Assembly (NCBI GenBank): GCA_040755995.1 | Contig: JBFMAF010000008.1 | Coordinates: forward strand, 192,001-256,000 | Reading direction: 5' to 3' | DNA length: 64,000 nt | Source of the DNA: Acidobacteriota bacterium | GTDB taxonomy: Bacteria > Acidobacteriota > CAIWXX01 | Part shown: positions 23,801 through 59,299 of the stretch, piece by piece | Numbering within the stretch: position 1 is the stretch's first letter | Layout: each line of letters starts with the position of its first letter | Notes under the pieces: generated by a model | Told to the model about the DNA's origin: nothing | Database searches by the model: none | The model's input: only the letters and a program-made list of their open reading frames with translations | Translations under genes and position numbers: made by a program

Positions 23801-24670
23801 TTGGCGATTCGGGCGAACATCAACGGCAGGATGTGCACCGAGGCGGAGGCGGTCGTTTCCGTATTCGACCACGGGTTTCTGTACGGAGAGGGCGTGTACG
23901 AGACGCTGAGAACGTACCGCCGCAAGCCGTTCCTCTTCGACCGCCACCTTCGCCGCCTGCGGGCGTCGGCGTCGATGATCGATCTGGACGTGCCGCTCAC
24001 GGGCGATTGCCTGTTGGCGCGCATGGAAGAAACGGCGGCGGACCTGAACGCGGAGGGGGAGATCTACTTCAGGATCCTCTTGACGCGCGGGCCCGGCGAT
24101 TTCTGTTACGACCTCAACGCCTGTCCCGAGCCGACGCTGGTCATCATAGCCAGGCCGTTCGCCCCGCCGCCCGAGGAGGTCTATGCGCGCGGGATCCGGG
24201 TGTCAGTGGTGTCGACCACGCGGAGCTATCCGAACTCGATCAATCCGCTGATCAAGTCGAACAACCTGCTCCCAAACGCGCTCGCCATGCGCGAGGCGCG
24301 CAAGCGAGGCGCCTATGAGGGGGTCATGGTCAACTTCCGCGGCGAGATCACCGAGTGCTCCCAGTCGAACTTCTTCGTAGTGGAGCAGGGACAGGTGCTG
24401 ACGCCGCCGCTTGAAAGCGGCCTGCTCGCCGGCATCACCCGCGAGCTCGTTCTCGAGATCAGCGCCGAAGCGCAGCTGTCGACTCGCGAGTGCGTGCTCC
24501 GGGTCCGCGATCTGCTCGACGCCGACGAGGCGTTTCTGACCAGCACGACGCGAGAGGTCGTGCCAATCGTGCGCGTGGATGGACACGTGATCGGGTCGGG
24601 GCAGCCGGGTCCGATTACACGAATGTTGCTCGATCGTTTCCGAACGAAGGCGCTGGAGCTCAGCAGTTGA
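23801..24670 (+). CDS. PLP-dependent class IV aminotransferase (IlvE/Dat/PabC family)
   Basis: 'DHGFLYGEGVYET', 'IKSNN', 'ECSQSNFF', 'LAGITR', 'EAFLTST'. Confidence 0.9.
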   Translation: MAIRANINGRMCTEAEAVVSVFDHGFLYGEGVYETLRTYRRKPFLFDRHLRRLRASASMIDLDVPLTGDCLLARMEETAADLNAEGEIYFRILLTRGPGDFCYDLNACPEPTLVIIARPFAPPPEEVYARGIRVSVVSTTRSYPNSINPLIKSNNLLPNALAMREARKRGAYEGVMVNFRGEITECSQSNFFVVEQGQVLTPPLESGLLAGITRELVLEISAEAQLSTRECVLRVRDLLDADEAFLTSTTREVVPIVRVDGHVIGSGQPGPITRMLLDRFRTKALELSS

Positions 24671-35665: not shown

Positions 35666-37123
35666 ATGCAGTCAGCCATCGAAGGGTTGAAACCGGAGCC
35701 CGTGTGGAGGTATTTTGCCGAAATATCGCGCATTCCCAGGGGGTCGAAGAACGAAGCGGCTGTCGCCCAGTACGTGATGGACACTGCCAAGCGCCTCGGC
35801 CTTGAAGCGAAGCAGGACGCTTCCGGAAACGTCCTGGTGAAGAAGCCCGCATCGCCGGGCCGCGAGAGCGTTCCATCGGTGGCGCTGCAGGGACACCTCG
35901 ACATGGTCTGCGAGAAGAATGCAGACAAGGACCACGATTTCATGAAAGATCCCATCGAGCTGGTCCGGAAGGACAGAGTGCTGATGGCCAACGGGACTAC
36001 CCTCGGTGCCGACAACGGCACAGGCGTGGCCACCGCTCTCGCCATCATGGAAGATCGGTCGCTGGTGCACGGGCCGTTGGAGTTCTTGTTTACCGTGGAC
36101 GAAGAGACGGGTCTCACGGGCGCGGCGAACCTCGAGCCCGGTTTCCTGGACAGCCGCATACTCCTCAATCTCGACACCGAGGAAGAAGGCGCCCTCTACA
36201 TCGGATGTTCGGGCGGTGTCGATACCCTGGGTACCTGGAAGGCCGACTACAAGGACGCTCCCTCCGGCCATGTGACCGCGCAACTCAAGGTTGCGGGCCT
36301 GCGCGGCGGGCACTCCGGCCTCGACATCGACAAGGGGCGCGGGAACGCGATAAAGATCCTCACACGGGTTCTGCTGGCGCTCGATGCTCTCGGCGCCCGG
36401 ATCGCCTCCGTCTCGGCCGGCAGCAAGCACAATGCCATCCCGCGCGAAGCCGACGCGGTCGTCCTCATTCCGAAGAAGATGATCGACGAGGCCACGAACA
36501 CAGTGCAGCAGCTTGCCACGACACTCCGCGCTGAAGTGGCGACCGTCGATCCCGACCTTGTCGTAAGCCTGGAGAAAGTGAAGGGCAAGCGCAAGGCGGC
36601 GGTGCTCAAGAAAGGCCTCCAGAGGAAGCTCCTGCAGACGCTTTCCGCGATGCCTCACGGTGTAGTGAAGATGAGCGCCGAGATCTCGGGGCTGGTCGAG
36701 ACATCGACCAACCTGGCTGTCATCAACACGACGAAGAAATCGATATCGATGGTGACGAGCCAGCGCAGCTCGGCAGCCTCGGAGATCCAGGAGATCGCGC
36801 AGACAGTGGCATCGGTGCTCGAGCTTGGCGGGGCCGAAATCGGCAGTACGCACAGCTATCCAGGATGGAAGCCGAATCCCGATTCGGCTATTGTAAAGCT
36901 GTCGAGATCCACCTACGCGTCGATGTACGGAAGAGAGCCACTGGTCAAGGCCGTGCACGCGGGGCTGGAGTGCGGGCTCCTCGGCGAGAAGTATCCCGCG
37001 ATGGACATGGTCTCGATCGGACCGACTCTGGAAGCCGTTCACTCGCCGGACGAGAAGATCTACATCGACACGGTCGAGAAGTTCTGGAACTTCCTCCTCG
37101 CGGTCCTGAGGAACGTCGGCTAG
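35666..37123 (+). CDS. pepD: Aminoacyl-histidine dipeptidase (M20C)
   Basis: 'LQGHLDMVCEK', 'TLGADNG', 'DEETG', 'GGHSG', 'HAGLECG', 'HSPDE'. Confidence 0.93.
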   Translation: MQSAIEGLKPEPVWRYFAEISRIPRGSKNEAAVAQYVMDTAKRLGLEAKQDASGNVLVKKPASPGRESVPSVALQGHLDMVCEKNADKDHDFMKDPIELVRKDRVLMANGTTLGADNGTGVATALAIMEDRSLVHGPLEFLFTVDEETGLTGAANLEPGFLDSRILLNLDTEEEGALYIGCSGGVDTLGTWKADYKDAPSGHVTAQLKVAGLRGGHSGLDIDKGRGNAIKILTRVLLALDALGARIASVSAGSKHNAIPREADAVVLIPKKMIDEATNTVQQLATTLRAEVATVDPDLVVSLEKVKGKRKAAVLKKGLQRKLLQTLSAMPHGVVKMSAEISGLVETSTNLAVINTTKKSISMVTSQRSSAASEIQEIAQTVASVLELGGAEIGSTHSYPGWKPNPDSAIVKLSRSTYASMYGREPLVKAVHAGLECGLLGEKYPAMDMVSIGPTLEAVHSPDEKIYIDTVEKFWNFLLAVLRNVG

Positions 37124-37174: not shown

Positions 37175-37260
37175 GCCGCCCCTACGGGGCTCGCATCCGT
37201 CCGTCATCGTTCCAGGGGCTTGCGCCCCTGGCTACCTTCCGCCGCCCCTACGGGGCTCGC
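37175..37260. repeat. REP-like composite: two 20-bp direct repeats flanking a hairpin
   Basis: GCCGCCCCTACGGGGCTCGC at 37175 and 37241; CCAGGGGC-TTGC-GCCCCTGG at 37212-37231. Confidence 0.75.
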
Positions 37261-37431
37261 GCGGAATGCGCGTACTCCGACTCCCCGCATGCGTGTGCGC
37301 ACGCACGCGTCCACGCACGCGTCCGGTTTCTTGACAGCGCACAGACGCTATGCGAGTATTCAGTCTTTGTTTGAGGAGCGGTGACGGATCGTCACGCTCG
37401 GCATAGGAACCCATCGCAGGAGGGAATCGGA

Positions 37432-38478
37432 ATGGTCGGAATCGTAGGATACGGCGCCTACATCCCGCGTAACAGGATCAAGGTGGAGGAAATCGCCAAG
37501 ATCTGGGGGGCTGATGCCCCAAGCTACAAGCGCGGGCTGGGGCTCGAAGAGAAATCTGTGCCATCACCGGATCAGGACACCATCACGATGTCGGTGGAGG
37601 CTTCCAAGTACGCGCTCAAGAGGGCAAGGATCAATCCCCTTGACATCGGTGCTGTGTATGTCGGATCGGAGTCGCACCCATATGCGGTGAAGCCGTCGGG
37701 CACCGTGCTGGCCGAGGCCATCGGTGCGACCCCCGAGGTGCACACGGCGAGCTTCGAGTTCGCGTGCAAGGCCGGCACGGAGGCCATGTTTGTGTGCATC
37801 GGCCTGGTCGAGTCGGGGCGGATCAAGTACGGCCTGGCGGTCGGCGCGGACACCTCCCAGGGCGCTCCGGGCGACGCCCTCGAATACTCGACGGCGGCCG
37901 GCGCGGCTGCGTTCATCTTCGGCAGAGACAACGTGCTGGCCGAGATCAACGAGACATACGCGTTCATGACCGACACGCCCGACTTCTGGCGCAGAGAATA
38001 CGAGCACTACCCGCGCCACGCGGGGCGTTTCACGGGCGAGCCGGCCTACTTCAAGCACGTCCTCGGTGCGGCCACCGGGATCATGAAGAAGAGCGGCATG
38101 ACGCCCAAGGACTTCGACTACGTGATCTTCCACCAGCCGAACGGCAAGTTCCCGCTGAACGCAGCCAAGCAGCTGGGATTCCAGAAGGAGCAGGTCGAGA
38201 CCGGGCGCCTGGTGCCCAAACTGGGCAACACCTACTCCGGGTCCTCCCCCATCGGACTGACCGCGGTTCTGGACGTCGCCAGGCCCGGGAACAAGATCCT
38301 GCTGGTTTCGTACGGATCGGGAGCCGGCAGCGACGGGTTCATCTTCACAGTGACGGACAGGATTCTCGGTGTGCAGAACCTGGCTGTGAAAACCCGCGAG
38401 ATGCTCGACAACAACAAGGTGTACATCGACTACGGTACGTACGCCAAGTACCGCGGGAAGATCCGCAAGGCGGAGTGA
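37432..38478 (+). CDS. Hydroxymethylglutaryl-CoA synthase, archaeal type
   Basis: '[11 protein letters not shown]', catalytic 'EFACKAGT', 'HQPNGKFP', 'GNTYSG', 'SYGSGAGSD'; ~348 aa. Confidence 0.9.
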
Positions 38479-38495
38479 AGGACGGAGGAACAGGA

Positions 38496-39656
38496 ATGAG
38501 AGACGTAGCGGTAATCGGTGTAGGCCTTAACAAGAAATGGGGCGAGCTCTGGGAGATGCCCCTGCGGGATATCCTAGCCGAGGCGGCTCTGGCTGCAATC
38601 GACGATGCAGGCGTAGATCACATCGACTCGATGTACGTCGGCTGCATGTCCGGCGGGCTGTTCGTCGGGCAGGAGCACCTTGGCGCGATGATGGCCGACT
38701 ACATCGGCATGACTCCCGTTCCGGCCACGCGCGTCGAATCGGCGTGCTGTTCGGGCGGCACGGCAGTGCGGCAGGGCTACCTGGATGTGGCATCGGGTGC
38801 GAGCGACATAGTGCTGGCGGCCGGTGTCGAGAAAATGACCGACGTGAGCGGCGACGAAGCCACATACGCGCTCTCGACAGCCTCCGACATGGAGTACGAG
38901 GCATACCAGGGCATAACGTTCCCCGGGCTGTACGCGCTGATCGCGCGCGCGCACATGCATCAGTTCGGGACTACGCGCGAGCAGCTCGCGCACGTAGCGG
39001 TGAAGAATCACAGGCACGCCGCGAAGAATCCAGTGGCGCAGTATCCATTCGAGATCACAGTCCAGGGAGTCCTCGAGTCGACGCTCGTTGCCGACCCTTT
39101 GCACATCCTGGACTGCTCGCCCATAACTGACGGGGCCGCGGCCATCGTGCTGTGTTCGCTCGACATGGCCCGCAAGATCTGCAAGAAACCGCTGGTCAAG
39201 ATCATCGGGTCAGGGCAGGCCACGAGCACCATCGCGCTGCACTCGCGCTCCGACATGACCTGGTTCGAGTCCACAGCGAAGGCGGCGGAGAAGGCGTTCA
39301 AGATGGCAGGCAAGGGGCCTCGAGACATCCATGTCGCGGAGGTCCACGACTGCTTCACAATCGCCGAGATAGTCATCCTTGAGGCTCTGGGCTTCACCGA
39401 ACGCGGCAAGGGTGGGACGGCGGCCGAAAGCGGCATGACCGCACTCGGCGGCAGGATCCCGGTGAACACGAGCGGCGGCTTGAAGGGCAAGGGCCACCCG
39501 GTCGGAGCCACCGGCGTAGCGCAGGTCGTCGAAATCACCCGGCAGCTCCGCGGCGAGTCCGGCGAGCGTCAGGTGAAGGGGGCGCGGGTCGGCCTGACCC
39601 AGAACATGGGCGGGACCGGCGCCAGCACGGTGGTCCACATTTTGGAAGCTCAGTGA
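38496..39656 (+). CDS. Acetoacetyl-CoA thiolase, archaeal/SCP2-like type
   Basis: '[10 protein letters not shown]', '[11 protein letters not shown]', '[15 protein letters not shown]', 'QNMGG'. Confidence 0.9.
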
Positions 39657-39689
39657 ACTCCGGATACCTGGCCCAGAGGAGGATATAGC

Positions 39690-40082
39690 ATGGCAAATCC
39701 GGCAAAATACTGGAGAGAAATACCACAGCGATTTCGTCTGGAAGCGGCGAAGTGTGCCTCGTGCGGCAAGATCTTCTTCCCCCCGAGACTCATATGCGAC
39801 AAGTGCAAGTCGCGCCAGTTCGAGAAGGTCACGCTCAAAGACGAGGGCAAGGTCCTGACCTACACGATCATCCGAGTCGGGTCGAGCCAGTTCGCTGACC
39901 AGACCCCGTATGCCGTCGGGGTCATCGAGCTCGACGACGGCGTGAGGATCACGAGCCAGATCGTAGACTGCGATTTCGAGAAACTGACAATCGGGCAGCG
40001 CGTGAGAATAGAGTTCCGCAAGATCCAGAAGGTGGGAGCCGCCGGCATACTCTGCTACGGCTACAAGTGCGTGCCCGCCTGA
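39690..40082 (+). CDS. DUF35 Zn-ribbon/OB-fold protein (thiolase-HMGS scaffold)
   Basis: 'CASCG..FFPPRLICDKC' followed by an OB fold; adjacent to thiolase. Confidence 0.9.
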   Translation: MANPAKYWREIPQRFRLEAAKCASCGKIFFPPRLICDKCKSRQFEKVTLKDEGKVLTYTIIRVGSSQFADQTPYAVGVIELDDGVRITSQIVDCDFEKLTIGQRVRIEFRKIQKVGAAGILCYGYKCVPA

Positions 40083-40166
40083 TCGGGGAGCGCGCGCCAG
40101 AACACAGCTAATCGACATAGTCGGCTCCGACGGAGCCGGCACAATCCCGGCGAGACGCAGCTACTC

Positions 40167-41774
40167 ATGTATCGAATTGAATCGAAGATCGACACGAAGT
40201 CGCTCGAGTATCAGCAGAATTCGGAAGCGCTGAAGAATCAGGTCGCCGACCTGAGGCAGAGGCTCGAGCAGGTACGCAAGGGAGGATCACGCAGCGCCGT
40301 CGAGAAGCACAAGGCGAGGGGTAAGCTGACGGCGCGCGAGCGCATCGAGCTGCTCTTCGACAAGGCGACGCCTTTTCTGGAGTTCAGCCCCCTGGCCGCC
40401 TACGGGCTTCACAAGAATGAAGTCCCGTCGGCCGGTGTCGTCACCGGAGTGGGTGTGGTCTGCGGAAAGGAAGTGCTGGTCGTCGCCAACGACGCAACGG
40501 TCAAGGGCGGGACCTACCTCCCCGAGACGATCAAGAAACACGTCCGCGCGCAGGAGATCGCTCTCGAGAACAGGCTGACTTGCGTCTACCTCGTGGATTC
40601 CGGCGGGATCTTCCTCCCCCTGCAGGTGGGCACCTTCCCGGACAAGGAACACTTCGGACGCATCTTCTACAATCAGGCGCGGATGTCCGCATTGGGCATT
40701 CCGCAGATCTCGGTCGTGCTTGGCTCATGCACGGCGGGCGGCGCGTACGTCCCTGCGATGAGCGACGAGACGATCATCGTCAGGCAGCAGGGCACGATCT
40801 TCATCGGCGGGCCGCCGCTCGTGAAGGCTGCCACCGGTGTGGATGTGTCGCCGGAGGAGCTCGGCGGCGCCGATGTCCATTGCCGCATCTCGGGAGTCTC
40901 CGATCATTACGCCCTCAACGACCGGCACGCAATCGAGATCACGCGGAACATCGTTGAGAACCTGCCGGCACCCGCCAAGCATCCGCTCGATATCACCGAG
41001 CCCGAAGAGCCGTACTACGACCCGCAGGAGCTGTACGGGATCATCCCCCGCGACCTGCGCAGGCCGTTCGACATGCGCGAGGTCATCGCTCGAATCGTCG
41101 ACGGCAGCAGATTCCATGAGTTCAAGGAGCTCTACGGACTGACGTTGGTGACCGGATTCGCGCGAATAATGGGACACCCGGTCGGCATCGTGGCCAACAA
41201 CGGCGTGCTCTTCTCCGAAAGCTCGCTCAAGGGGGCTCATTTCGTCTCGATGTGCGCCGTTCGCAAGATCCCGCTCGTCTTCTTGCAGAACATCACCGGC
41301 TTCATCGTTGGAAAGCAATACGAGCACGGCGGCATCGCTCGCGACGGCGCCAAGATGGTTCACGCCGTCGCAAACGCCCAGGTTCCGCGATTCACGCTTA
41401 TCATCGGCGGCTCCTATGGCGCGGGCAACTACGCCATGTGCGGCCGCGGCTACCTGCCGCGACTCCTCTGGATGTGGCCCAACGCCAAGATCTGCGTGAT
41501 GGGCGGCGAACAGGCGGCCAGCGTCCTGTTGCAGGTGAAATTGGAAAACCTCAAAGCAAAGGGCGAGACGATGAGCGAGGAGGACCAGGAGGCGTTCAAG
41601 GCTCCGACTCTGGCCAAGTACGAGGAGGAGGCCAGCGCCTACTTCAGCACCGCACGACTCTGGGACGACGGCATCCTCGACCCGGTCGAGACGCGCAACG
41701 CGCTCGCACTCGGCATCTCCATGTCGCTCAACGCCCCGATCCCTAACCACAACTTCGGCGTCTTCAGGATGTAG
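40167..41774 (+). CDS. liuB: Methylcrotonyl-CoA carboxylase-like carboxyltransferase (beta) subunit
   Basis: '[11 protein letters not shown]', 'GSCTAGGAY', '[14 protein letters not shown]', terminal 'FGVFRM'. Confidence 0.85.
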
Positions 41775-41837
41775 ATGCTGCCGTGCAGCGCAACCTCAGC
41801 GTGCGTGACAATCCGGACTGCCGTTCGACCGGCCTCC

Positions 41838-41925
41838 GACGCGAGGACACGGAGACGCTGTGACGCGCAGACGCGGTGACCGGCCCGGTGAGCTCTTCGC
41901 GTCCCCACGCCTTCGCGCCCCGGCC
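41838..41925 (+). repeat. Octamer tandem array (GACRCGGW) with a partial inverted counterpart
   Basis: gacgcgag gacacgga gacgctgt gacgcgca gacgcggt gaccggcc. Confidence 0.7.
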
Positions 41926-41986
41926 TCATCGAGAAGCGCGTTGCAGGCGGGCCCGGGGCTAGACGCCGACCTGTCACCATGAGAAC

Positions 41987-42835
41987 ATGAATCACTACGA
42001 GACCATAGCCATTCACGTCGAGGGGGCGGTTGCGCGTGTGACGCTCAACAGGCCCGATGTCCGCAATGCGTTCAACGACCGGATGCTGGAGGAGCTTCTT
42101 GAGGCATTCCAGCGCATTCACATGGCCGAGACCGTGAGGGTGGTCGTGCTCACCGGGGCCGGGAGCTGCTTCTGCGCCGGGGCTGACCTCAACTGGCTGC
42201 GCCGCGTCAAGGAATTCACCTACGGGCAGAACCTCAGGGAATCTCGAGTACTGGCGGATTGCCTGTACGCCATGTACTCGTGCCCGAAGCCGACAGTGGC
42301 GCGCGTGAACGGCCCGGCAATCGGCGGCGGCACCGGACTCGTCGCCGTGTGCGATATCGCCATCGCATCCAGCGACGCGCAGTTCAGTTTCAGCGAGGTC
42401 AAGATCGGAGTCGTGCCGGCGTGCATCTCGCCGTACGTCGTGCGGAAAATGGGCGAGGGCAAGTGCCGCGAGCTCTTCCTCACCGGCGAGCGGATCGGCG
42501 CCGAACGCGCGCTGCAGGCGGGCCTGCTCAACCAGGTGACGCCGCCCGAATCGCTTGACCAGGCGGTAACGAGCAGGGTCGACCAGCTCCTCTCGAGCGG
42601 ACCGCATGCGCTGAAAATGTGCAAAGAGCTCCTCGAGAAGGTCCCTTCGATGGATCTGCACACGGCAGGCCCGTACACGGCAGAGATGGTCGCAAGGCTG
42701 AGAATGAGCGCCGAGGGCCAGGAGGGCATGGATGCGTTTCTGCAGAAGCGCAAGCCCTCGTGGATCGTGGACGCGGAGACAGGGAGACAAGCAGAAACGG
42801 GGAAACGAGGAAACGGTGACACGGAGACGCGGTGA
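41987..42835 (+). CDS. liuC: Enoyl-CoA hydratase, methylglutaconyl-CoA hydratase-like
   Basis: 'LNRPDVRNAF', 'FCAGADL', 'GGGTGLVAVCD', 'FSEVKIG', 'EGQEGMDAFLQKRKPSW'; lies between MCC subunits. Confidence 0.82.
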   Translation: MNHYETIAIHVEGAVARVTLNRPDVRNAFNDRMLEELLEAFQRIHMAETVRVVVLTGAGSCFCAGADLNWLRRVKEFTYGQNLRESRVLADCLYAMYSCPKPTVARVNGPAIGGGTGLVAVCDIAIASSDAQFSFSEVKIGVVPACISPYVVRKMGEGKCRELFLTGERIGAERALQAGLLNQVTPPESLDQAVTSRVDQLLSSGPHALKMCKELLEKVPSMDLHTAGPYTAEMVARLRMSAEGQEGMDAFLQKRKPSWIVDAETGRQAETGKRGNGDTETR

Positions 42836-42889
42836 CGCGGTGACACGGAGAAACGGCCACACGAAGAAACTCGGACACGGAGACACGGG
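42770..42889 (+). repeat. Octamer tandem array, 15 units (consensus GACACGGA), overlapping the hydratase 3' end
   Basis: gacgcgga gacaggga gacaagca gaaacggg ... gacacgga gacacggg. Confidence 0.85.
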
Positions 42890-42930
42890 GTCCAGAGGTC
42901 GAATGGTCGCCCCCTAGCGACTGCCCCACC

Positions 42931-44433
42931 ATGTTGAAGAAGATCCTCGTAGCGAACCGCGGCGAGATCGCGTTGCGCGTTATCCGTGCGTGCCGCGAGA
43001 TGGGAATTCCAACCGTGGCGGTCTACTCATCGGTCGATCGCGCTGCGAGGCACGTGCAGGCGGCGGACGAGGCTGTCTTCATCGGCCCGCCGGCGCCGCT
43101 GGAAAGCTACCTGAACATCGAGCGGATCGTTCAGGCGGCGCTCCAGATGCGTGCGGATGCGATCCACCCCGGCTACGGCTTCCTCGCCGAGAATCCGCGC
43201 TTCGCACTCAGGTGCGAGGAGGCTGGGCTGGTGTTCGTCGGTCCGAGCTCGAAGGCGCTGGCGCTGGTCGGCGACAAGGTCGAATCGCGCAAGACCGCCT
43301 CTACCATCCGGGTTCCGCTCATTCCCGGGATGATGGCACCGGGCAAGTCGCTGGAGGAGTTCCAGGCGGCCGCGGCGGAGATCGGATACCCGGTCCTGGT
43401 GAAGGCCTCCGGCGGCGGCGGCGGCAAGGGGATGCACGTAGTAAGGTCGTCTGCGGAGCTGAAGTCGTCGATCGAGATGAGCCGCCGCGAAGCGAAGTCG
43501 GCCTTCGGTGACGACGCCGTATACATCGAGAAGTACCTGGAGAGGCCGCGGCATGTGGAGTTCCAGGTGCTGGCGGACCGTCACGGCCACACCATACATC
43601 TGTGCGAGCGCGAGTGCTCGATTCAGCGCCGCCATCAAAAGATAGTCGAGGAAACGCCCTCTGTCGCGCTTGATCCGGGTCTCCGGCGCCGCATGGGTGA
43701 AACGGCCGTCGCTATCATCCGCGCCACGGGGTACACGAACGCCGGCACCGTCGAGTTTCTCCTCGACCGTGAGCGACGATTCTACTTCCTCGAAGTGAAC
43801 GCGCGCATCCAGGTGGAGCACCCGATCACGGAGATGGTGGTCGGCGTGGACCTCGTGAAGCAGCAGATTCGGATCGCCGCCGGCGAGCCGCTGACCATTC
43901 ACCAGGAGGACATCCAGCAGCGCGGCCACGCCATCGAGTGCCGCATCTACGCCGAAGACCCTGAGAGAGGCTTTCTTCCAAGCCCCGGCAGAATCCTCCT
44001 GGCGCGCGAGCCGGAAGGACCGGGAATACGCTGCGACTCGGGGATCTACTCCGGCATCGAGGTGACTCCTCACTACGACCCGATCCTGTCGAAGCTCATA
44101 ACGTGGGGTGAGGACCGGGATTCCGCGCGCCAGCGCATGATATCCGCGCTCGATCGCTACGTCATTCTGGGCATTCCGACTGGTATCGAGTTCCTCAAGG
44201 ACGTTATCAGGCATCCTGCCTACGCATCGGGCGATACGCACACGCACTTCGTGGACGAACACTTTGGCGACTGGAGGCCTGTGGCGCCGGAGGAGGAAGC
44301 GATGAAGGCGGCGCTGGTGGCGGCGGCGTTGACCGAGCTCGGCCCTGCCAGAGCATCAGGACCCGCTCAGCAATTGCGCCGCCCCACTCCCTGGCAGACC
44401 ATCGGCAAGTGGGCGATCGGCGGAACGAGATGA
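42931..44433 (+). CDS. Biotin carboxylase subunit
   Basis: 'ILVANRGEIALR', 'HPGYGFLAEN', 'GGGGKGM', 'ERECSIQRRHQK', 'RIQVEHP'; no BCCP domain. Confidence 0.93.
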   Translation: MLKKILVANRGEIALRVIRACREMGIPTVAVYSSVDRAARHVQAADEAVFIGPPAPLESYLNIERIVQAALQMRADAIHPGYGFLAENPRFALRCEEAGLVFVGPSSKALALVGDKVESRKTASTIRVPLIPGMMAPGKSLEEFQAAAAEIGYPVLVKASGGGGGKGMHVVRSSAELKSSIEMSRREAKSAFGDDAVYIEKYLERPRHVEFQVLADRHGHTIHLCERECSIQRRHQKIVEETPSVALDPGLRRRMGETAVAIIRATGYTNAGTVEFLLDRERRFYFLEVNARIQVEHPITEMVVGVDLVKQQIRIAAGEPLTIHQEDIQQRGHAIECRIYAEDPERGFLPSPGRILLAREPEGPGIRCDSGIYSGIEVTPHYDPILSKLITWGEDRDSARQRMISALDRYVILGIPTGIEFLKDVIRHPAYASGDTHTHFVDEHFGDWRPVAPEEEAMKAALVAAALTELGPARASGPAQQLRRPTPWQTIGKWAIGGTR

Positions 44434-44540
44434 GGAGCAGGCTGTGCGTGCGACGGGCAGAGATGCGTTCACGCTCACGTCGAAGTCTACGTTCACGAAT
44501 GACCGTGCCGCCGCATCATGGCGGCACCCCGTGAGGCGAG

Positions 44541-45044
44541 ATGGAACATGAGTTTGTAGTGGGCGGGCAGAGCCATCGGGTCTCGGTGGAACACCGGGAT
44601 GGGAAGGATCACATAGCGGTCGACGGCGAGCCGTTCGATGTGGATCTGCGGCAGGTCGATTCACACACCGTCTCACTTCTTCTGGGGAGCCGCTCTTTCG
44701 TCGTCCACATTTCGAGGGATGCTAGCCGGACACTGGCGGTTGTGGGGGGGCACCGGTTCTGCCTGGAGGAGCCCGCCGCTGAGAGTGCGCGCGCCGCCGC
44801 GGGCGCGGGAAGCGCCGACGGGGAGATAAAGGCGCCGATGCCGGGGCTAGTGACGAAGGTACACGTGGCGCAGGGGGCCGTAGTGAAAGCCGGGGAGAGC
44901 CTTGTGGTCGTCGAAGCCATGAAGATGGAAAACGAGATGCGGGCGCCGTTCAGGGGCGTGGTCGCGAAGGTACACGTGCAGGCCGGCCAACAGGTCGACG
45001 CGTTCCAGGCGCTGGTCGAGGTGGAGCCCGCCGAAGGCGACTGA
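44541..45044 (+). CDS. Biotin carboxyl carrier protein with N-terminal BT-like domain
   Basis: 'APMPG', 'EAMKMENE' biotinylation motif. Confidence 0.92.
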   Translation: MEHEFVVGGQSHRVSVEHRDGKDHIAVDGEPFDVDLRQVDSHTVSLLLGSRSFVVHISRDASRTLAVVGGHRFCLEEPAAESARAAAGAGSADGEIKAPMPGLVTKVHVAQGAVVKAGESLVVVEAMKMENEMRAPFRGVVAKVHVQAGQQVDAFQALVEVEPAEGD

Positions 45045-45170
45045 GCAGGGCCGGCCGAATCCCGCAGCCGCCGGGGGAGTGGCACGGGTCTTCAGCGATC
45101 TTCGCTGCTATGCCAGCGACATCGCGGGCTTGACGCCCCACTGCGGGTTCCGCTATAGTCCATCTTCGAC

Positions 45171-47799: not shown

Positions 47800-49284
47800 C
47801 TACTTCTTGTAGATCAGTCGAATGGTGAACCTGATCTCGATGCCCTCGGGTGTCGCCTCGGGCTGAATCGAGCTCAGATCGATCGGCACGACGATCTCGG
47901 GAGCCTCCGCGGGTGGGCGTGGAGGTTGTGGGGGCTCTGCGGCCTCGAGGTCGAGCGGGCCAACCAGTTCTTCGAACGGCTCTGTCGGCAGCGGCGGTGT
48001 CGGTGTCTCGGCTGGGGCCTCGGGAACCAGCGTCGGCTCGGTTCTGGGAGGGGCCGGTTCCGGCTCAGCGACCAGCACAGCTTCGGGAATCGGCTCGGGC
48101 GCCGCCACTGGCATCGGCTCCGGCGCCGCCGCCGGGATGAGCTCCGGTTCGCCAATCACCTCGGGTGCCTCGAGCAGCTCCCGTTCCGCGGCAGGTTCGG
48201 GTGAGGTCATCGGAATCTCCGGCTCCTGGATCGCCTCCGGCATCGGGGCGGGCTCGAGCAGCGTGACCGCGCCAAGATCAGCCGGAGTCTCCTCCGCTGG
48301 GACCTGCTGGGGTTCCTCTTCGATCTCCTCCAGGTCCGAGAGTGAGAGGAATTCCTCCTCCGGCAGAGATCGTCGCAACGGCGCGGGATGCGAGGGAGGC
48401 ACCGGTTCCATAGGGAAGGACTCGTCCTCGATCGGCAACGTCTCGGCCAGGGCCTGTTCGGTCAACTGCCGCGCCGATTCCGGCTCGAGATCCTCCTCCA
48501 TGGGTGAGCTCACGCTGATCGTGGGCGGCGAAAGATCCTGTGGCTCCTCTTCCAACGGTGCTTCGCTTTGCAGCTCGGCTTCGTTTTCGTAATGGACTTC
48601 ACTTTCCGTCGGCTCGAACTCCTTGAACTCCACCTGCTCCTCCAGCGGCGGCTCGTATTTTCGGACTCGAGGTCCCGCCTCCTCACGCTCGAGTTGCACG
48701 AACCTCCCCGTAAGACCTTCGAGCACCTTCTTGCAGATCTCTCGGAATGTATCATGGACTCCCTCTCCGCGAAGCGCGGAGGCTTCGAAGCTCGGCCGGT
48801 TCAGCGTATTGAGCTGTGCTTCCAAGATCTCCACGGGGAGCAGATTCGGGAGGTCGCGCTTGTTGTACTGGATGACGAGCGGTATTTCGTCCAGATTGAT
48901 CTTCTTCTCGGCGAGGTTGGTGCGGAGATTCTCCATGCTCTCGATATTCGACTGGGCCATCTCGGCCTGAGAATCTGCCACGAAGACGACCCCATCAACG
49001 CCTTGGAGTACGAGTTTTCGGGTCGAGTCGTAGAAGACCTGTCCTGGCACCGTGTAAAGCTGCACGCGCGTCTTGAAGTCTTTGATCCGGCCGAGCTCGA
49101 TCGGAAGGAAGTCGAAGAACAGGGTCCTGTCGGTCTCCGTTTGGAGGGAGATCATCTTGCCTTTGCCCTCTGCCGGGAGCGTCTCGTAGATGTACCGCAG
49201 GTTGGTGGTTTTGCCCCCCAGGCCTGGGCCATAGTAGACGACCTTCGCCGTGATCTCTCGAGTCGCGTTGTTGATCAGTGCCAT
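47800..49284 (-). CDS. mglA: MglA-family small GTPase with ~290-aa Glu/Pro-rich tail
   Basis: 'YYGPGLGGKTTN', 'TDRTLFFDFLP', 'TVPGQVFY', 'NKRD', 'ASA'. Confidence 0.87.
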   Translation of the reverse strand: MALINNATREITAKVVYYGPGLGGKTTNLRYIYETLPAEGKGKMISLQTETDRTLFFDFLPIELGRIKDFKTRVQLYTVPGQVFYDSTRKLVLQGVDGVVFVADSQAEMAQSNIESMENLRTNLAEKKINLDEIPLVIQYNKRDLPNLLPVEILEAQLNTLNRPSFEASALRGEGVHDTFREICKKVLEGLTGRFVQLEREEAGPRVRKYEPPLEEQVEFKEFEPTESEVHYENEAELQSEAPLEEEPQDLSPPTISVSSPMEEDLEPESARQLTEQALAETLPIEDESFPMEPVPPSHPAPLRRSLPEEEFLSLSDLEEIEEEPQQVPAEETPADLGAVTLLEPAPMPEAIQEPEIPMTSPEPAAERELLEAPEVIGEPELIPAAAPEPMPVAAPEPIPEAVLVAEPEPAPPRTEPTLVPEAPAETPTPPLPTEPFEELVGPLDLEAAEPPQPPRPPAEAPEIVVPIDLSSIQPEATPEGIEIRFTIRLIYKK

Positions 49285-53602: not shown

Positions 53603-55375
53603 CTATTCCAACGTACACTTCCTCCCGGCGTTGGCTTTCTTCAAGTACGCCATCAGGGGCTCGTAGTAGTCGAGCATCGCCTGAGCGCTGAGATCGGCGC
53701 CGGTGCGCTCGCGCAGGAGGGATCTCCAGTCGGCTGTGGCGCCTGGCTTCATGATCTCTCTTAGGAAGCGCCCGGTTTCCTTGCTGCCGAAGTAGTCGGC
53801 CGAATGCGGGTCCTGCTTGAGGATCTGCTTCGAGATATAGTCGTGCAGGTGGAACTTCAGGACTGTTCCGAGCGCATAGTCGTAGTACTGAGCAGGGTCG
53901 TCGTTGATGTGGGTTTTGCTGGCGGCGTCACAGTACTCCTCGCCACGCGGCGAAGGCGGAACGATGCCCTGGTACTTCCTGACGTACTCCCACCAACGCG
54001 CGTTGTACTGGGCCGGCGGCAGGTTCTTCTCGTAGAGGTCGTGTTCGAAGTGACTCATGGTGCCCGCGGCAAACGGGAGATAGACCACGGAAGACCCGGC
54101 GAGCGCGTCGTCGAGGAGCCACTGTATCTCGTCGATAGGCCTGTCCGCCGGCAGCAGGCCGATCTCGCGGAGGTACGGCCGCTGGCACGACGCGATCCCG
54201 ATCAGGTCGCCGATCCCCTCATGGAACGCGCGATTGGCCCCCTCGCGGAGGAGAATCGGGACGCCGGGGTTCGAGTAGCTCATGTAGTAGTAGATGTGCC
54301 CGAGCTCGTGATGCGCGGTCTTGAACCAAGTAGCGTTGGGCTTGACGCTCATCAGCGACCGGACGTCGTCGTCGAGGTTGATGTGCCAGGCTGACGCGTG
54401 GGTGTTCTTCTTGCGAGCGCCCTCGGGCGGATAGAGGTCCGAGCGTTTCCAGAAGCCCGCATTCAGCGGATCGAATCCCATGGACACATAGAACGCCTCC
54501 GCCTGCCGGACAACCCATTCTTTCGTTCTGTCCTGGAACAGCGAGTCCATGTCGATCGCATCGACGACACCCGGCCAGTTCTGTCCCCAGCGATTGGCGA
54601 GCCAGTGGGCGGGGAGCATGTCCGGGACCGGCTGGTTGTAGCGTTTGGCCAGTTCGTAGCGGCAGTATGTGTGGATCTCCCTGTAGAGCGGCCGCAGCTG
54701 ATCGAGGAATCCATCGAGCAGGGCCATCATTGCCGGCGTGGTCATCCCGTATGCCGCAACCTCCAGGTCGAAATACGACGAGAACCCCATCTCGCGAGCC
54801 ACGCGGTTTCGCAGCTCTTGCAAGTCGACAAGGCCGGCTCGAAGGCTCTTGCCGACTTCCTTCGACGCTTCCCATGCAGCAAGCCGCTGCTCGAGGTCGC
54901 GCGAGTCGACCAGGATGTCATCGATGTCGTTCGGAGTCACCGGCTTCCCATCGATCTTGAAGTCGAAGCCGTACAGCGCGGCGCTCTGATCGGACTCGGC
55001 CTTGACCAGCCTCGAGACGACCTCGGGAATGGTGCCTGGCCGATGGGCCGCGGCCAGCCGCATCATCTCGATCTGCCTGGCCTGGAGCGGCGTGAGCGCC
55101 CCTTTCTGCATCAAGAGGGTTTTCAACTTCTCGATCGTTTCCTTCCTGCCGATGAAAACCGAGAAAGCTTCGTTCGCCTTGACCTCCGCCGCACTGTGCT
55201 CGTCGGTTATGTCGGTATTGGCGAGCCACGACGCCTCTGATGCGGCCGTGTACAGCTTCTGGTACTCCGCCGTGTAGGCCCCGATGAAATCGTCGACATC
55301 CGATCCCGGTTCCGCACCGAGTGCGACGCACGGTAGTCTCAGCATGACAATCGCAAACGCCACTAACATCCTCAT
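53603..55375 (-). CDS. M2-family (ACE-like) peptidyl-dipeptidase
   Basis: 'HASAW', 'HHELGH', 'GANRAFHEGIGD', 'YYDY'; signal peptide. Confidence 0.92.
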   Translation of the reverse strand: MRMLVAFAIVMLRLPCVALGAEPGSDVDDFIGAYTAEYQKLYTAASEASWLANTDITDEHSAAEVKANEAFSVFIGRKETIEKLKTLLMQKGALTPLQARQIEMMRLAAAHRPGTIPEVVSRLVKAESDQSAALYGFDFKIDGKPVTPNDIDDILVDSRDLEQRLAAWEASKEVGKSLRAGLVDLQELRNRVAREMGFSSYFDLEVAAYGMTTPAMMALLDGFLDQLRPLYREIHTYCRYELAKRYNQPVPDMLPAHWLANRWGQNWPGVVDAIDMDSLFQDRTKEWVVRQAEAFYVSMGFDPLNAGFWKRSDLYPPEGARKKNTHASAWHINLDDDVRSLMSVKPNATWFKTAHHELGHIYYYMSYSNPGVPILLREGANRAFHEGIGDLIGIASCQRPYLREIGLLPADRPIDEIQWLLDDALAGSSVVYLPFAAGTMSHFEHDLYEKNLPPAQYNARWWEYVRKYQGIVPPSPRGEEYCDAASKTHINDDPAQYYDYALGTVLKFHLHDYISKQILKQDPHSADYFGSKETGRFLREIMKPGATADWRSLLRERTGADLSAQAMLDYYEPLMAYLKKANAGRKCTLE

Positions 55376-55657
55376 CAGCCTCTCCTCGTGAATCCGGGAG
55401 CCCTTCCTGCGGGCCCCGGAGAACCTCGCCGCTTGTAGCACACGGGTCCGAGTATGGTCAAGGTTGAGTGGCGGCAAGGCGGCAGATTCGTTGCTCGAAG
55501 GAGTCGGTTGAACCGCTCATATGCGGCTCCGCCTGCGGATTTGGCAGACGCCTGATGCACGACCCACTCCTGCAAACGAGGGGGCTGGGCAACGGCAATG
55601 AGGAACCGCTTCTCCCGACAGCCCATCGAGAAGGCCTACTTGCCCCTCGCACCAAGC

Positions 55658-57973: not shown

Positions 57974-59299
<1,326 letters not shown>

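Follow-up and report, generated by a model that had tools for sequence, protein, structure and literature searches.

A block of seven genes in an uncultured Acidobacteriota genome (completeness 99.84%) may encode a lyase-free version of the lower pathway of leucine and isovalerate breakdown, one that ends in HMG-CoA synthase and thiolase operating in reverse and yields three acetyl-CoA. We hold this reading to be slightly better than evenly balanced. The genes are co-oriented on the + strand within positions 37432-45044 of the window, the 64,000-nucleotide stretch of DNA that was analyzed, and the catalytic motifs are intact in all seven (Table 1). The preliminary description of this DNA had listed the same seven genes, and its family assignments hold. 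A reversed triad of synthase, thiolase, and DUF35 protein that stands in for the lyase was absent from that description and is ranked first here. The chances seem about equal for and against a wider proposal, in which many uncultured peptide-eating bacteria across phyla would finish leucine breakdown without a lyase by way of the reversed triad, with one energy-rich bond saved, and the forward direction would be kept by a sister triad that belongs to an AIB-type operon in the same phylum. No description of such a block was found in the literature searched.

Table 1. Features of the seven-gene block and its flanks (positions in the window)
Feature	Position	Strand	Details
Terminator-like hairpin, then perfect TTGACA	37305..37336	+	hairpin 37305-37322, after upstream dipeptidase gene; TTGACA 37331-37336
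Archaeal-type HMG-CoA synthase	37432..38478	+	348 aa; TIGR00748 559.8 bits, cut-off 353
Archaeal-type acetoacetyl-CoA thiolase	38496..39656	+	386 aa; NF004720 545 bits, cut-off 420
DUF35 scaffold (zinc ribbon + OB fold)	39690..40082	+	130 aa; PF12172 + PF01796
MCC-beta-type carboxyltransferase (LiuB-like)	40167..41774	+	535 aa; PF01039
Crotonase, predicted methylglutaconyl-CoA hydratase (LiuC-like)	41987..42835	+	substrate suggested by context
Biotin carboxylase (BC)	42931..44433	+	500 aa; NF006367 641 bits, TIGR00514 630 bits, both over cut-off
Biotin carboxyl carrier protein (BCCP), N-terminal extension	44541..45044	+	167 aa; PF00364; MKM motif
Promoter-like site before next gene	45130..45159	+	10/12 consensus match only

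The synthase has residues E80, C112, H234, and N266, and this E-C-H-N tetrad is invariant in 88/88 aligned relatives. The thiolase carries C84 (CxS) and the HDxF and GH motifs, which are invariant wherever relatives cover them (81-83 of 85 aligned). Both proteins have 6ESQ as their top structure match (E 4e-144 and 9.9e-112, respectively), and the four Cys of the DUF35 protein are kept in 71-73 of 78 relatives. In the biotin carboxylase, the ATP-grasp and catalytic motifs are intact and kept in 37-39 of 40 relatives, and the MKME sequence of the BCCP is found in 28/28 aligned relatives. The crotonase scores below every NCBIfam cut-off (best PRK07468, 262 bits, and PRK05674, 260 bits). It has Gly at the first catalytic position and Glu137 at the second, and its C-terminal tail is a low-complexity sequence derived from an 8-nt repeat (42762-42897). 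The hairpin and TTGACA upstream of the block possibly mark the 5' boundary of an operon; TTGACA was read from the sequence, and the promoter scan gave it no score. The promoter-like site downstream is a possible 3' boundary, from a scan that found five such sites versus 1.9 expected.

The nearest structures to the carboxyltransferase are those of MCC-beta (720-727 bits), versus 461 bits for geranyl-CoA carboxylase, ~290 bits or less for classical PCC structures, and 157-176 bits for glutaconyl-CoA decarboxylase. The preliminary description had named a grouping with geranyl- or propionyl-CoA enzymes as a finding that would speak against it. We reject both assignments because the protein is closer to MCC structures, with the caveat that its top match, 9TPS (743 bits), is labeled propionyl-CoA carboxylase beta, yet ranks among the MCC-beta chains. 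Elsewhere in the genome, contig C10 encodes a separate PCC/MMD-type beta subunit. At the family level, the BC, BCCP, and beta subunit of the block are predicted to make up a methylcrotonyl-CoA carboxylase, with methylcrotonyl-CoA as the probable substrate.

All seven genes occur together in 26/80 related loci spread over many phyla. Where at least 6 kb of downstream sequence exists (46 loci), 29 have MCC-beta and 33 have some carboxyltransferase. The adjacency of triad and carboxylase is not chance, and the functional link that had been drawn between the two halves of the block holds. Neighbors that adjoin the block in the 80 loci include genes for acyl-CoA dehydrogenase (12), methylmalonyl-CoA mutase (5), a leucine-dehydrogenase-like protein (1), and a 2-oxoacid dehydrogenase (1), and peptidase and valine/isoleucine catabolic genes are also found there. 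We estimate that ~4000 sequence stretches match, a figure that takes in archaeal and other relatives.

A lyase, acyl-CoA dehydrogenase, or reductase is found in 0 of the 45 window ORFs scanned against Pfam, and genome-wide searches place none in the window, in line with the preliminary description, which had listed HMG-CoA lyase, isovaleryl-CoA dehydrogenase, and HMG-CoA reductase as absent. The broader claim of a missing lyase stands for the block and for the related loci (0/80 with an HMG-CoA lyase match). It does not stand for the whole genome, where one lyase-family gene, on contig C21, scores 268.7 bits against the NCBIfam HMG-CoA lyase (NF004283) cut-off of 246. In a phylum sample of 161 genomes, 58 have MCC-beta at 54% identity or above, and we compared these for high-scoring lyases (at least 300 bits). 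A liu-type lyase of this score is present in 0/13 MCC-beta genomes with a window-type triad versus 31/43 without any triad; by family, the contrast is 0/9 versus 13/18, with one AIB-type family among the 9. It is weaker when every lyase-family match is counted (6/14 genomes with triad and MCC versus 35/44), and the p-values overstate it because the genomes are kin rather than independent. A known exit is thus not always required by MCC-beta: of the 44 genomes that have it and show no triad match, nine have no lyase-family match either, among them G012, whose AIB-type triad is truncated. In G105, a triad genome that lacks MCC-beta, a lyase scores 362 bits.

The proposed pathway would begin with the deamination and oxidation of leucine to isovaleryl-CoA and then methylcrotonyl-CoA by enzymes encoded elsewhere. 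Candidates of presumptive specificity are present; the 12 acyl-CoA dehydrogenase matches in the genome all lie outside the window, and none is assignable as LiuA. The BC, BCCP, and MCC-beta would then carboxylate methylcrotonyl-CoA with ATP, and the crotonase would hydrate methylglutaconyl-CoA to HMG-CoA. HMG-CoA synthase in reverse would convert HMG-CoA and CoA to acetyl-CoA and acetoacetyl-CoA, and the thiolase would at once split the channeled acetoacetyl-CoA with a second CoA. ATP-driven carboxylation would supply the push, and thiolysis together with drainage of acetyl-CoA through Pta/AckA would supply the pull. Thiolase condensation is given as +25.2 kJ/mol (PMC10562921), so thiolysis would pull by the same amount. 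Since no free acetoacetate would be released, the CoA transfer that follows the lyase would be spared, at a gain of ~1 ATP equivalent per leucine. The genome also encodes an aa3-type oxidase, and the organism is therefore not necessarily energy-starved, a point against this reading.

Most relatives have a lyase where this block has its triad, directly before the genes of leucine breakdown, so the triad likely runs backwards. The conservation of the block, the absence of another known sink for HMG-CoA, the retention of a complete ATP-dependent carboxylase in a genome with no Na-pump decarboxylase beta subunit, the catabolic neighbors, and the mutual exclusion of triad and lyase also argue for reversal, although the same exclusion would be expected of a biosynthetic block because a futile cycle would be avoided. 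The HMG-CoA synthase reaction, described as the exergonic step, ends with hydrolysis of an enzyme thioester (PMC11522927), so a net reverse flux through this enzyme is unprecedented in the literature searched. The aligned relatives reveal no active-site change that marks window-type synthases as remodeled. The source genome's own lyase-family gene and ScoAB-type CoA-transferase also count against reversal.

The main alternative, unlikely but credible, is the de novo isovaleryl-CoA route that the preliminary description advanced. Here the triad would run forward, the hydratase would dehydrate HMG-CoA, the biotin enzyme would take over the role of AibA/B by decarboxylating methylglutaconyl-CoA, possibly with recovery of ATP, and methylcrotonyl-CoA would be reduced by an acyl-CoA dehydrogenase with ETF. 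The product would prime iso-fatty acids or, in the boldest version, leucine by reductive carboxylation. The synthase and thiolase steps would all keep their known direction, the absence of a lyase would be expected, and the genome encodes FabH and ETF. Among window-type triad genomes, ilvC and leuA over its cut-off are each found in 0/29, and in Myxococcus the AIB pathway is reported to operate when leucine is limiting (PMC5389471). The route also has a real counterpart: five genomes (G004, G094, G130, G038, and G012) have a diverged triad within a Myxococcus-like biosynthetic operon that carries TetR-, AibA/B-, and AibC-like genes and no BC. As this operon demonstrates, forward operation of archaeal-type triads does occur in the phylum, and exchange of AibA/B for MCC would be a simple parallel. 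The block itself, however, departs from that counterpart. An AibC-like orthologue is present in 5/5 AIB-type genomes versus 0/29 window-type triad genomes and 0/80 loci; in the source genome, the best AibC matches are generic zinc dehydrogenases at 35-38%, versus 58-100% in AIB-type genomes, and three AibA/B-like queries give no tblastn match at E 1e-6. An intact biotin carboxylase, for which a decarboxylase has no need, is retained. The valine/isoleucine catabolic, leucine-dehydrogenase-like, and peptidase neighbors likewise fit poorly with biosynthesis, and leucine importers with 2-oxoacid dehydrogenases would already obtain isovaleryl-CoA and then have no known route to oxidize it.

Ordinary leucine catabolism, finished by the C21 lyase-family protein and ScoAB with the triad unrelated or accessory (for example, in acetoacetate formation), is improbable. 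The C21 gene does pass its cut-off, as do the ScoA/ScoB-type genes (the only CoA-transferase genes found in a PF01144 search of the genome), and some genomes with triad and MCC have a lyase-family match, as counted above. However, the C21 protein is 34-38% identical to liu-linked lyases, falls in a separate, long-stemmed clade (support 100/99) with an adjoining CaiB-type CoA-transferase in 13/14 rows, is followed by CaiB-, LeuC-, and LeuD-like genes, and is also encoded by genomes (G002, G018, G033, and G036) that lack MCC-beta. Its gene neighborhood points to another dicarboxylate substrate, and we take the cluster to resemble a citramalate-type system. In addition, 34/40 genomes with triad and carboxylase that were reached through their loci, and whose completeness is not given, have no lyase over the cut-off.

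It is quite improbable that the two arms meet at HMG-CoA or methylglutaconyl-CoA and that a further enzyme drains this intermediate into a product. Both enzyme sets would keep their usual directions, and in caprazamycin synthesis an HMG-CoA synthase arm and a liu arm are described as meeting at methylglutaconyl-CoA (PMC9636800), but when 3396 ORFs from 91 loci are clustered, no conserved extra gene able to serve as the sink emerges, and the block is spread over many phyla like core metabolism. A leucine-to-mevalonate shunt feeding isoprenoids, also suggested earlier, is very improbable: searches find no HMG-CoA reductase in the whole genome, which also has no mevalonate kinase or AcnX and has the MEP genes Dxr, IspE, and IspG, so the shunt is out for this organism unless a reductase is unassembled or non-homologous, and it may operate in the minority of genomes with a reductase (3/33 triad genomes of the phylum; 5/40 block-bearing genomes full-length, plus 4 weak matches).

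The usual view of HMG-CoA synthase is that it works in one direction and marks mevalonate synthesis. If in reverse it closes leucine catabolism, then HMG-CoA has a third fate beside lyase and reductase, leucine and isovalerate oxidation near the thermodynamic limit gains ~1 ATP equivalent, and annotations in which these genes count as an incomplete mevalonate pathway are incorrect for thousands of sequences. Isovaleryl-CoA supply by a reversed MCC would likewise be new biochemistry. Since one phylum has both the MCC-linked and the AIB-type architecture, the two lend themselves to an in vitro comparison of direction.

Among known systems, the archaeal HMG-CoA synthase/thiolase/DUF35 complex shares with the block its three adjacent genes, nearest structure relatives, and the tetrad and CxS/HDxF/GH motifs (as defined in PMC12960953). 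By its likeness to 6ESQ, the triad may also form a physical complex with a shared CoA site and channeling. Unlike the archaeal genes, those of the triad continue into genes for a biotin carboxylase and a hydratase, its predicted direction is the opposite one, and it would not feed mevalonate, its bacterial host having MEP genes but lacking HMG-CoA reductase. The liu pathway (LiuA, LiuB/D, LiuC, and LiuE) similarly groups MCC-beta, biotin carboxylase, and BCCP with a hydratase, for which the LiuC-like crotonase of the block is a candidate, whereas the block has no LiuE or LiuA, splits the alpha subunit into BC and BCCP, and has the triad where phylum relatives keep the lyase. PhlABC/MucABC are likewise bacterial triads outside the mevalonate pathway, but they are described as having lost the synthase tetrad and thiolase HDxF that the window triad keeps (PMC12960953). 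The AIB pathway of Myxococcus xanthus (MvaS, LiuC, AibA/B, AibC, and AibR) also connects HMG-CoA synthase with C5/C6 branched CoA esters and does so without HMG-CoA reductase. The window block differs in having an archaeal-type rather than MvaS-type synthase and an ATP-dependent carboxylase, with no AibA/B, AibC, or TetR gene, and the true counterpart of that pathway is the AIB-like operon with an archaeal-type triad in five genomes of the same phylum.

Seven open reading frames, all on the + strand, lie where the preliminary description placed them, with the thiolase starting at 38496. They encode an archaeal-type triad of HMG-CoA synthase (HMGS), thiolase and DUF35 protein, an MCC-beta-type carboxyltransferase, a crotonase, a biotin carboxylase (BC) and a biotin carrier (BCCP). 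The synthase and thiolase match TIGR00748 (559.8 bits) and NF004720 (545 bits) in NCBIfam, and their best solved relative is the Methanothermococcus complex 6ESQ; profile searches give clear family matches for the DUF35 protein, carboxyltransferase, BC and BCCP. The carboxyltransferase scores 720-727 bits against MCC-beta chains versus 461 for geranyl-CoA carboxylase and about 290 or less for classical propionyl-CoA carboxylase (PCC) chains, which upholds its earlier assignment to the MCC type, with the top structure match (9TPS, 743 bits) labelled PCC beta. The crotonase falls short of all NCBIfam cut-offs, and its LiuC-like label comes from its gene context. Catalytic motifs are intact and near-invariant among relatives, and GC and GC3 resemble those of neighbouring genes. 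The intergenic gaps measure 17, 33, 84, 212, 95 and 107 nt, relatives being spaced much more tightly. A sequence scan finds no terminator-like site in any of the six gaps, and the genes may be co-transcribed. Two gaps contain a degenerate 8-nt repeat, the second of which adds about 20 low-complexity residues to the hydratase.

The one small RNA found by an Rfam scan is unrelated to the block; its match is flanked by a pair of identical 20-nt copies, one at 37175 and the other at 37241. Genes for peptide catabolism also lie nearby: a PepD-type dipeptidase directly upstream, M2 (ACE-like) and M16 peptidases, and a class IV aminotransferase. An MglA-like GTPase, whose C-terminal extension is long, acidic and rich in proline, adjoins a DUF4388-DnaJ-TPR gene.

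A scan of genome contigs gave at least 586 relatives, and the best 80 loci come from Acidobacteriota (including Aminicenantes), Zixibacteria, Eisenbacteria, Ignavibacteria, Calditrichota, Planctomycetota, Elusimicrobiota and others. The seven genes occur together in 26 of these 80, where the two gene blocks are again adjacent, and MCC-beta occurs in 39. Where at least 6 kb of downstream sequence exists (46 loci), 29 have MCC-beta, 33 have some carboxyltransferase and 13 have neither a carboxyltransferase nor a LiuC-like gene. Gene order varies, with the triad before or after the other genes. An unrelated 578-aa carboxyltransferase (31-36% to the window's) is used in 4 of the 80 loci and in G014, G031 and G086. 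It is equidistant from glutaconyl-CoA decarboxylase and MCC-beta, is accompanied by its own 200-aa biotin carrier, and appears at three places on an HMGS tree (FastTree, 89 rows) whose deep nodes are weak.

Other arrangements also occur. In family f19 (L205-L207, from G020, G037 and G164) the triad and a third carboxyltransferase type (44-48%) with a crotonase are on separate contigs; neither BC nor lyase is found within about 7 kb at these loci. Genome G015 has a similar carboxyltransferase/crotonase pair with an adjacent lyase. A Bacteroidetes locus carries a pyruvate/oxaloacetate carboxyltransferase-BCCP fusion between crotonase and HMGS, which hints at ATP-free transcarboxylation. At L208 (G035), a window-type MCC-beta (72%) accompanies acyl-CoA dehydrogenase, BC and BCCP, without a triad or adjacent hydratase; the only lyase in that genome is of the CaiB-linked type.

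Features of the block, its surroundings and related loci
Feature	Location	Remarks
Seven-gene block	window 37432-45044	+ strand
Degenerate 8-nt tandem repeats	window 41826-41880 and 42762-42897	two operon gaps
Acido-Lenti-1 RNA match	window 37212-37257	Rfam RF01687, 46.6 bits; between dipeptidase and HMGS genes
Peptide-catabolism genes	window 35666-37123, 53603-55477, 57974-59299, 23801-24670	
MglA-like GTPase	window 47800-49284	
HMGL-family lyase, CaiB-type CoA-transferase, LeuC-like, LeuD-like	L036:8195-12374 (source genome, contig C21)	conserved four-gene unit
Second thiolase/DUF35 pair	L187 (source genome, C35:277000-286200)	
Diverged triad operons	L033:7045-14745 (G004), L034:1-7056 (G038), L035 (G012)	AIB-like; also G094, G130
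578-aa carboxyltransferase family	L108:7529-9271, L114:5559-7913, L028, L029, L091, L097, L211	replaces MCC-beta beside triad
Carboxyltransferase-BCCP fusion	L103:1074-3281	Bacteroidetes

We consider it somewhat probable that the block is the end of leucine/isovalerate catabolism, with HMGS and thiolase running in reverse. The complete ATP-dependent carboxylase would make methylglutaconyl-CoA. With this carboxylase complete, and neither lyase nor reductase there to remove HMG-CoA, the synthase would be the only conserved HMG-CoA-binding enzyme left. The predicted net reaction, HMG-CoA + 2 CoA = 3 acetyl-CoA + H2O, counts three solutes on either side, and their ratios would therefore set its direction. 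In the available text of PMC10562921 cleavage is favoured by 25.2 kJ/mol in the thiolase half, and in that of PMC11522927 the HMGS half is exergonic when run forward. If the triad proteins form a complex, a shared CoA site channelling acetoacetyl-CoA would suit either direction. The gain relative to lyase plus CoA transfer might be one thioester per leucine.

The source genome (7.7 Mb, 99.84% complete) has candidates for upper catabolism: the class IV aminotransferase of the window (under cut-off), a leucine-dehydrogenase-like gene (42%), a 2-oxoacid dehydrogenase and seven ferredoxin oxidoreductase matches. It also has 12 acyl-CoA dehydrogenase matches with ETF, Pta and AckA, and an aa3-type oxidase; NCBIfam assigns none of its acyl-CoA dehydrogenases or 2-oxoacid oxidoreductases to leucine. 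The closest named relatives of its HMGS, among the matches listed, are Acidobacteriota MAGs. Elsewhere it carries a second thiolase/DUF35 pair without HMGS, adjoining a 2-hydroxyacyl-CoA dehydratase subunit, its activase and an ADP-forming CoA ligase.

Two HMGS residues, E117 and Y32, differ from 6ESQ and are near-fixed in relatives (87/88 and 80/88). We rejected E117 as an active-site mark of direction because synthases of the AIB type (after the Myxococcus isovaleryl-CoA synthesis pathway) and 39 of 136 aligned representatives share it. A retro-aldolase role for thiolase/DUF35, modelled on Ltp2, was rejected because the thiolase catalytic Cys and the HDxF/GH motifs are intact.

The block might instead synthesize isovaleryl-CoA de novo, which we regard as unlikely but credible. 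A diverged triad, 51-53% to the window's, provides an internal control in five genomes. Its operons resemble the AIB pathway described in the available text of PMC5389471, combining TetR, HMGS, thiolase, DUF35, two sets of CoA-transferase-fold genes and an AibC-like zinc dehydrogenase. At three loci (L033-L035) the triad precedes the CoA-transferase-fold genes and dehydrogenase, with a TetR-like gene before it in two. For the CoA-transferase-fold proteins the top structures are 5MZW chain A (E 2e-66) and chain B (E 2.4e-51), and for the dehydrogenase 5K1S (E 9.7e-119; next 1.7e-49). Their database names are generic, and we take them to be Myxococcus AibA/AibB and AibC. Dehydrogenase orthologues (58-100%) occur in all five AIB-type genomes versus none of 29 window-type genomes. 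This operon has the look of a de novo isovaleryl-CoA pathway outside the myxobacteria. Two of its hosts, G038 and G012, also have MCC-beta, with no lyase match. The control tells for both readings. In this phylum, archaeal-type triads outside the mevalonate pathway do work in the forward direction, but the biosynthetic version relies on a dedicated decarboxylase and a dedicated reductase and has no biotin carboxylase. Among 33 triad genomes, leuA exceeds the cut-off in four and ilvC is present in two, every one of them AIB-type; partial LeuA-like matches below the cut-off turn up in two window-type genomes. Neither gene was found in a search of the source genome.

Ordinary catabolism through a conventional lyase appears improbable. 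The main point against the claimed lack of a lyase is the single HMGL-family gene of the source genome, on contig C21 (268.7 bits versus a cut-off of 246), together with a ScoAB-type transferase. This qualifies the claim at genome level. In the best 80 loci of at least 586, two different queries give no lyase match, and the C21 gene belongs to a CaiB-linked clade. CaiB-, LeuC- and LeuD-like genes follow it, and this four-gene unit is widespread across the phylum. A tree of 26 family members places it in a 14-member clade (support 100/99, long stem); CaiB is adjacent in 13, and the 14th locus ends there. Nine high-scoring lyases fall outside, seven with BC or BCCP within 1.5 kb. We read the C21 protein as a probable lyase for another dicarboxylyl-CoA, presumably analogous to citramalyl-CoA lyase. 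The available text of PMC12290011 does not confirm this analogy.

Triad and lyase rarely coincide. Among 40 chosen loci with triad and carboxylase, from genomes of unstated completeness, a lyase exceeds the cut-off in six genomes, every one of these lyases belonging to the CaiB-linked clade. An even sample of the phylum comprises 161 genomes, each at least 90% complete: archaeal-type HMGS exceeds its cut-off in 33, a lyase reaches at least 300 bits (a line chosen after scores were seen) in 37, and both occur in one, counts that include kin and hence non-independent genomes. With MCC-beta of at least 54% (58 genomes, two AIB-type ones left out of the comparison), such lyases occur in 0/13 genomes with a window-type triad versus 31/43 triad-free genomes (30/42 leaving out unpublished G025, whose publication needs its depositors' permission). 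Score is an imperfect classifier, since some liu-linked lyases score low (as in G015); counting any lyase-family match gives 6/14 with the triad versus 35/44 without. Of these six (the source genome, G028, G100, G108, G144 and G178), the first three were checked for gene context and are CaiB-linked.

An unknown sink for HMG-CoA is very improbable. No other conserved gene able to act as one is found among the relative loci, and the recurrent extra neighbours in the best 80 are catabolic: acyl-CoA dehydrogenase (12), methylmalonyl-CoA mutase (5) and AtuA-like (3). A leucine-dehydrogenase-like gene and a 2-oxoacid dehydrogenase each occur in one locus.

The leucine-to-mevalonate shunt proposed earlier is scarcely credible: HMG-CoA reductase (HMGR) matches occur in 9 of the 40 triad and carboxylase genomes (5 full-length), but the source genome yields neither HMGR nor AcnX, its pair of GHMP kinases consists of IspE and a heptose-kinase-like protein, and Dxr and IspG are present, so the shunt fails there. 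An IspH candidate, a lead from an incomplete motif scan of six-frame ORFs, was not confirmed; the MEP genes identified do not include IspH, Dxs, IspD or IspF. Absence of AcnX also rules out the modified archaeal mevalonate route. A Na-pumping decarboxylase is ruled out, as the genome has no OAD_beta.

A search of the open literature found no published description of the seven-gene block, and it is a real, widespread and apparently undescribed variant. The available texts of PMC6107057, PMC13001223, PMC12960953 and bioRxiv 10.1101/2024.07.05.601840 treat archaeal-type triads only in mevalonate, acyltransferase or archaeal lipid roles, and that of PMC9636800 offers a precedent for convergence. 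The window HMGS keeps its tetrad, which places it outside the Phl/Muc systems. Its triad is intact and archaeal-type, but the HMGR of the mevalonate systems is missing, and unlike the Myxococcus AIB pathway the block has no AibA/B/C. It would work like the lower leucine/isovalerate utilisation (liu) pathway, but without the HMG-CoA lyase LiuE.
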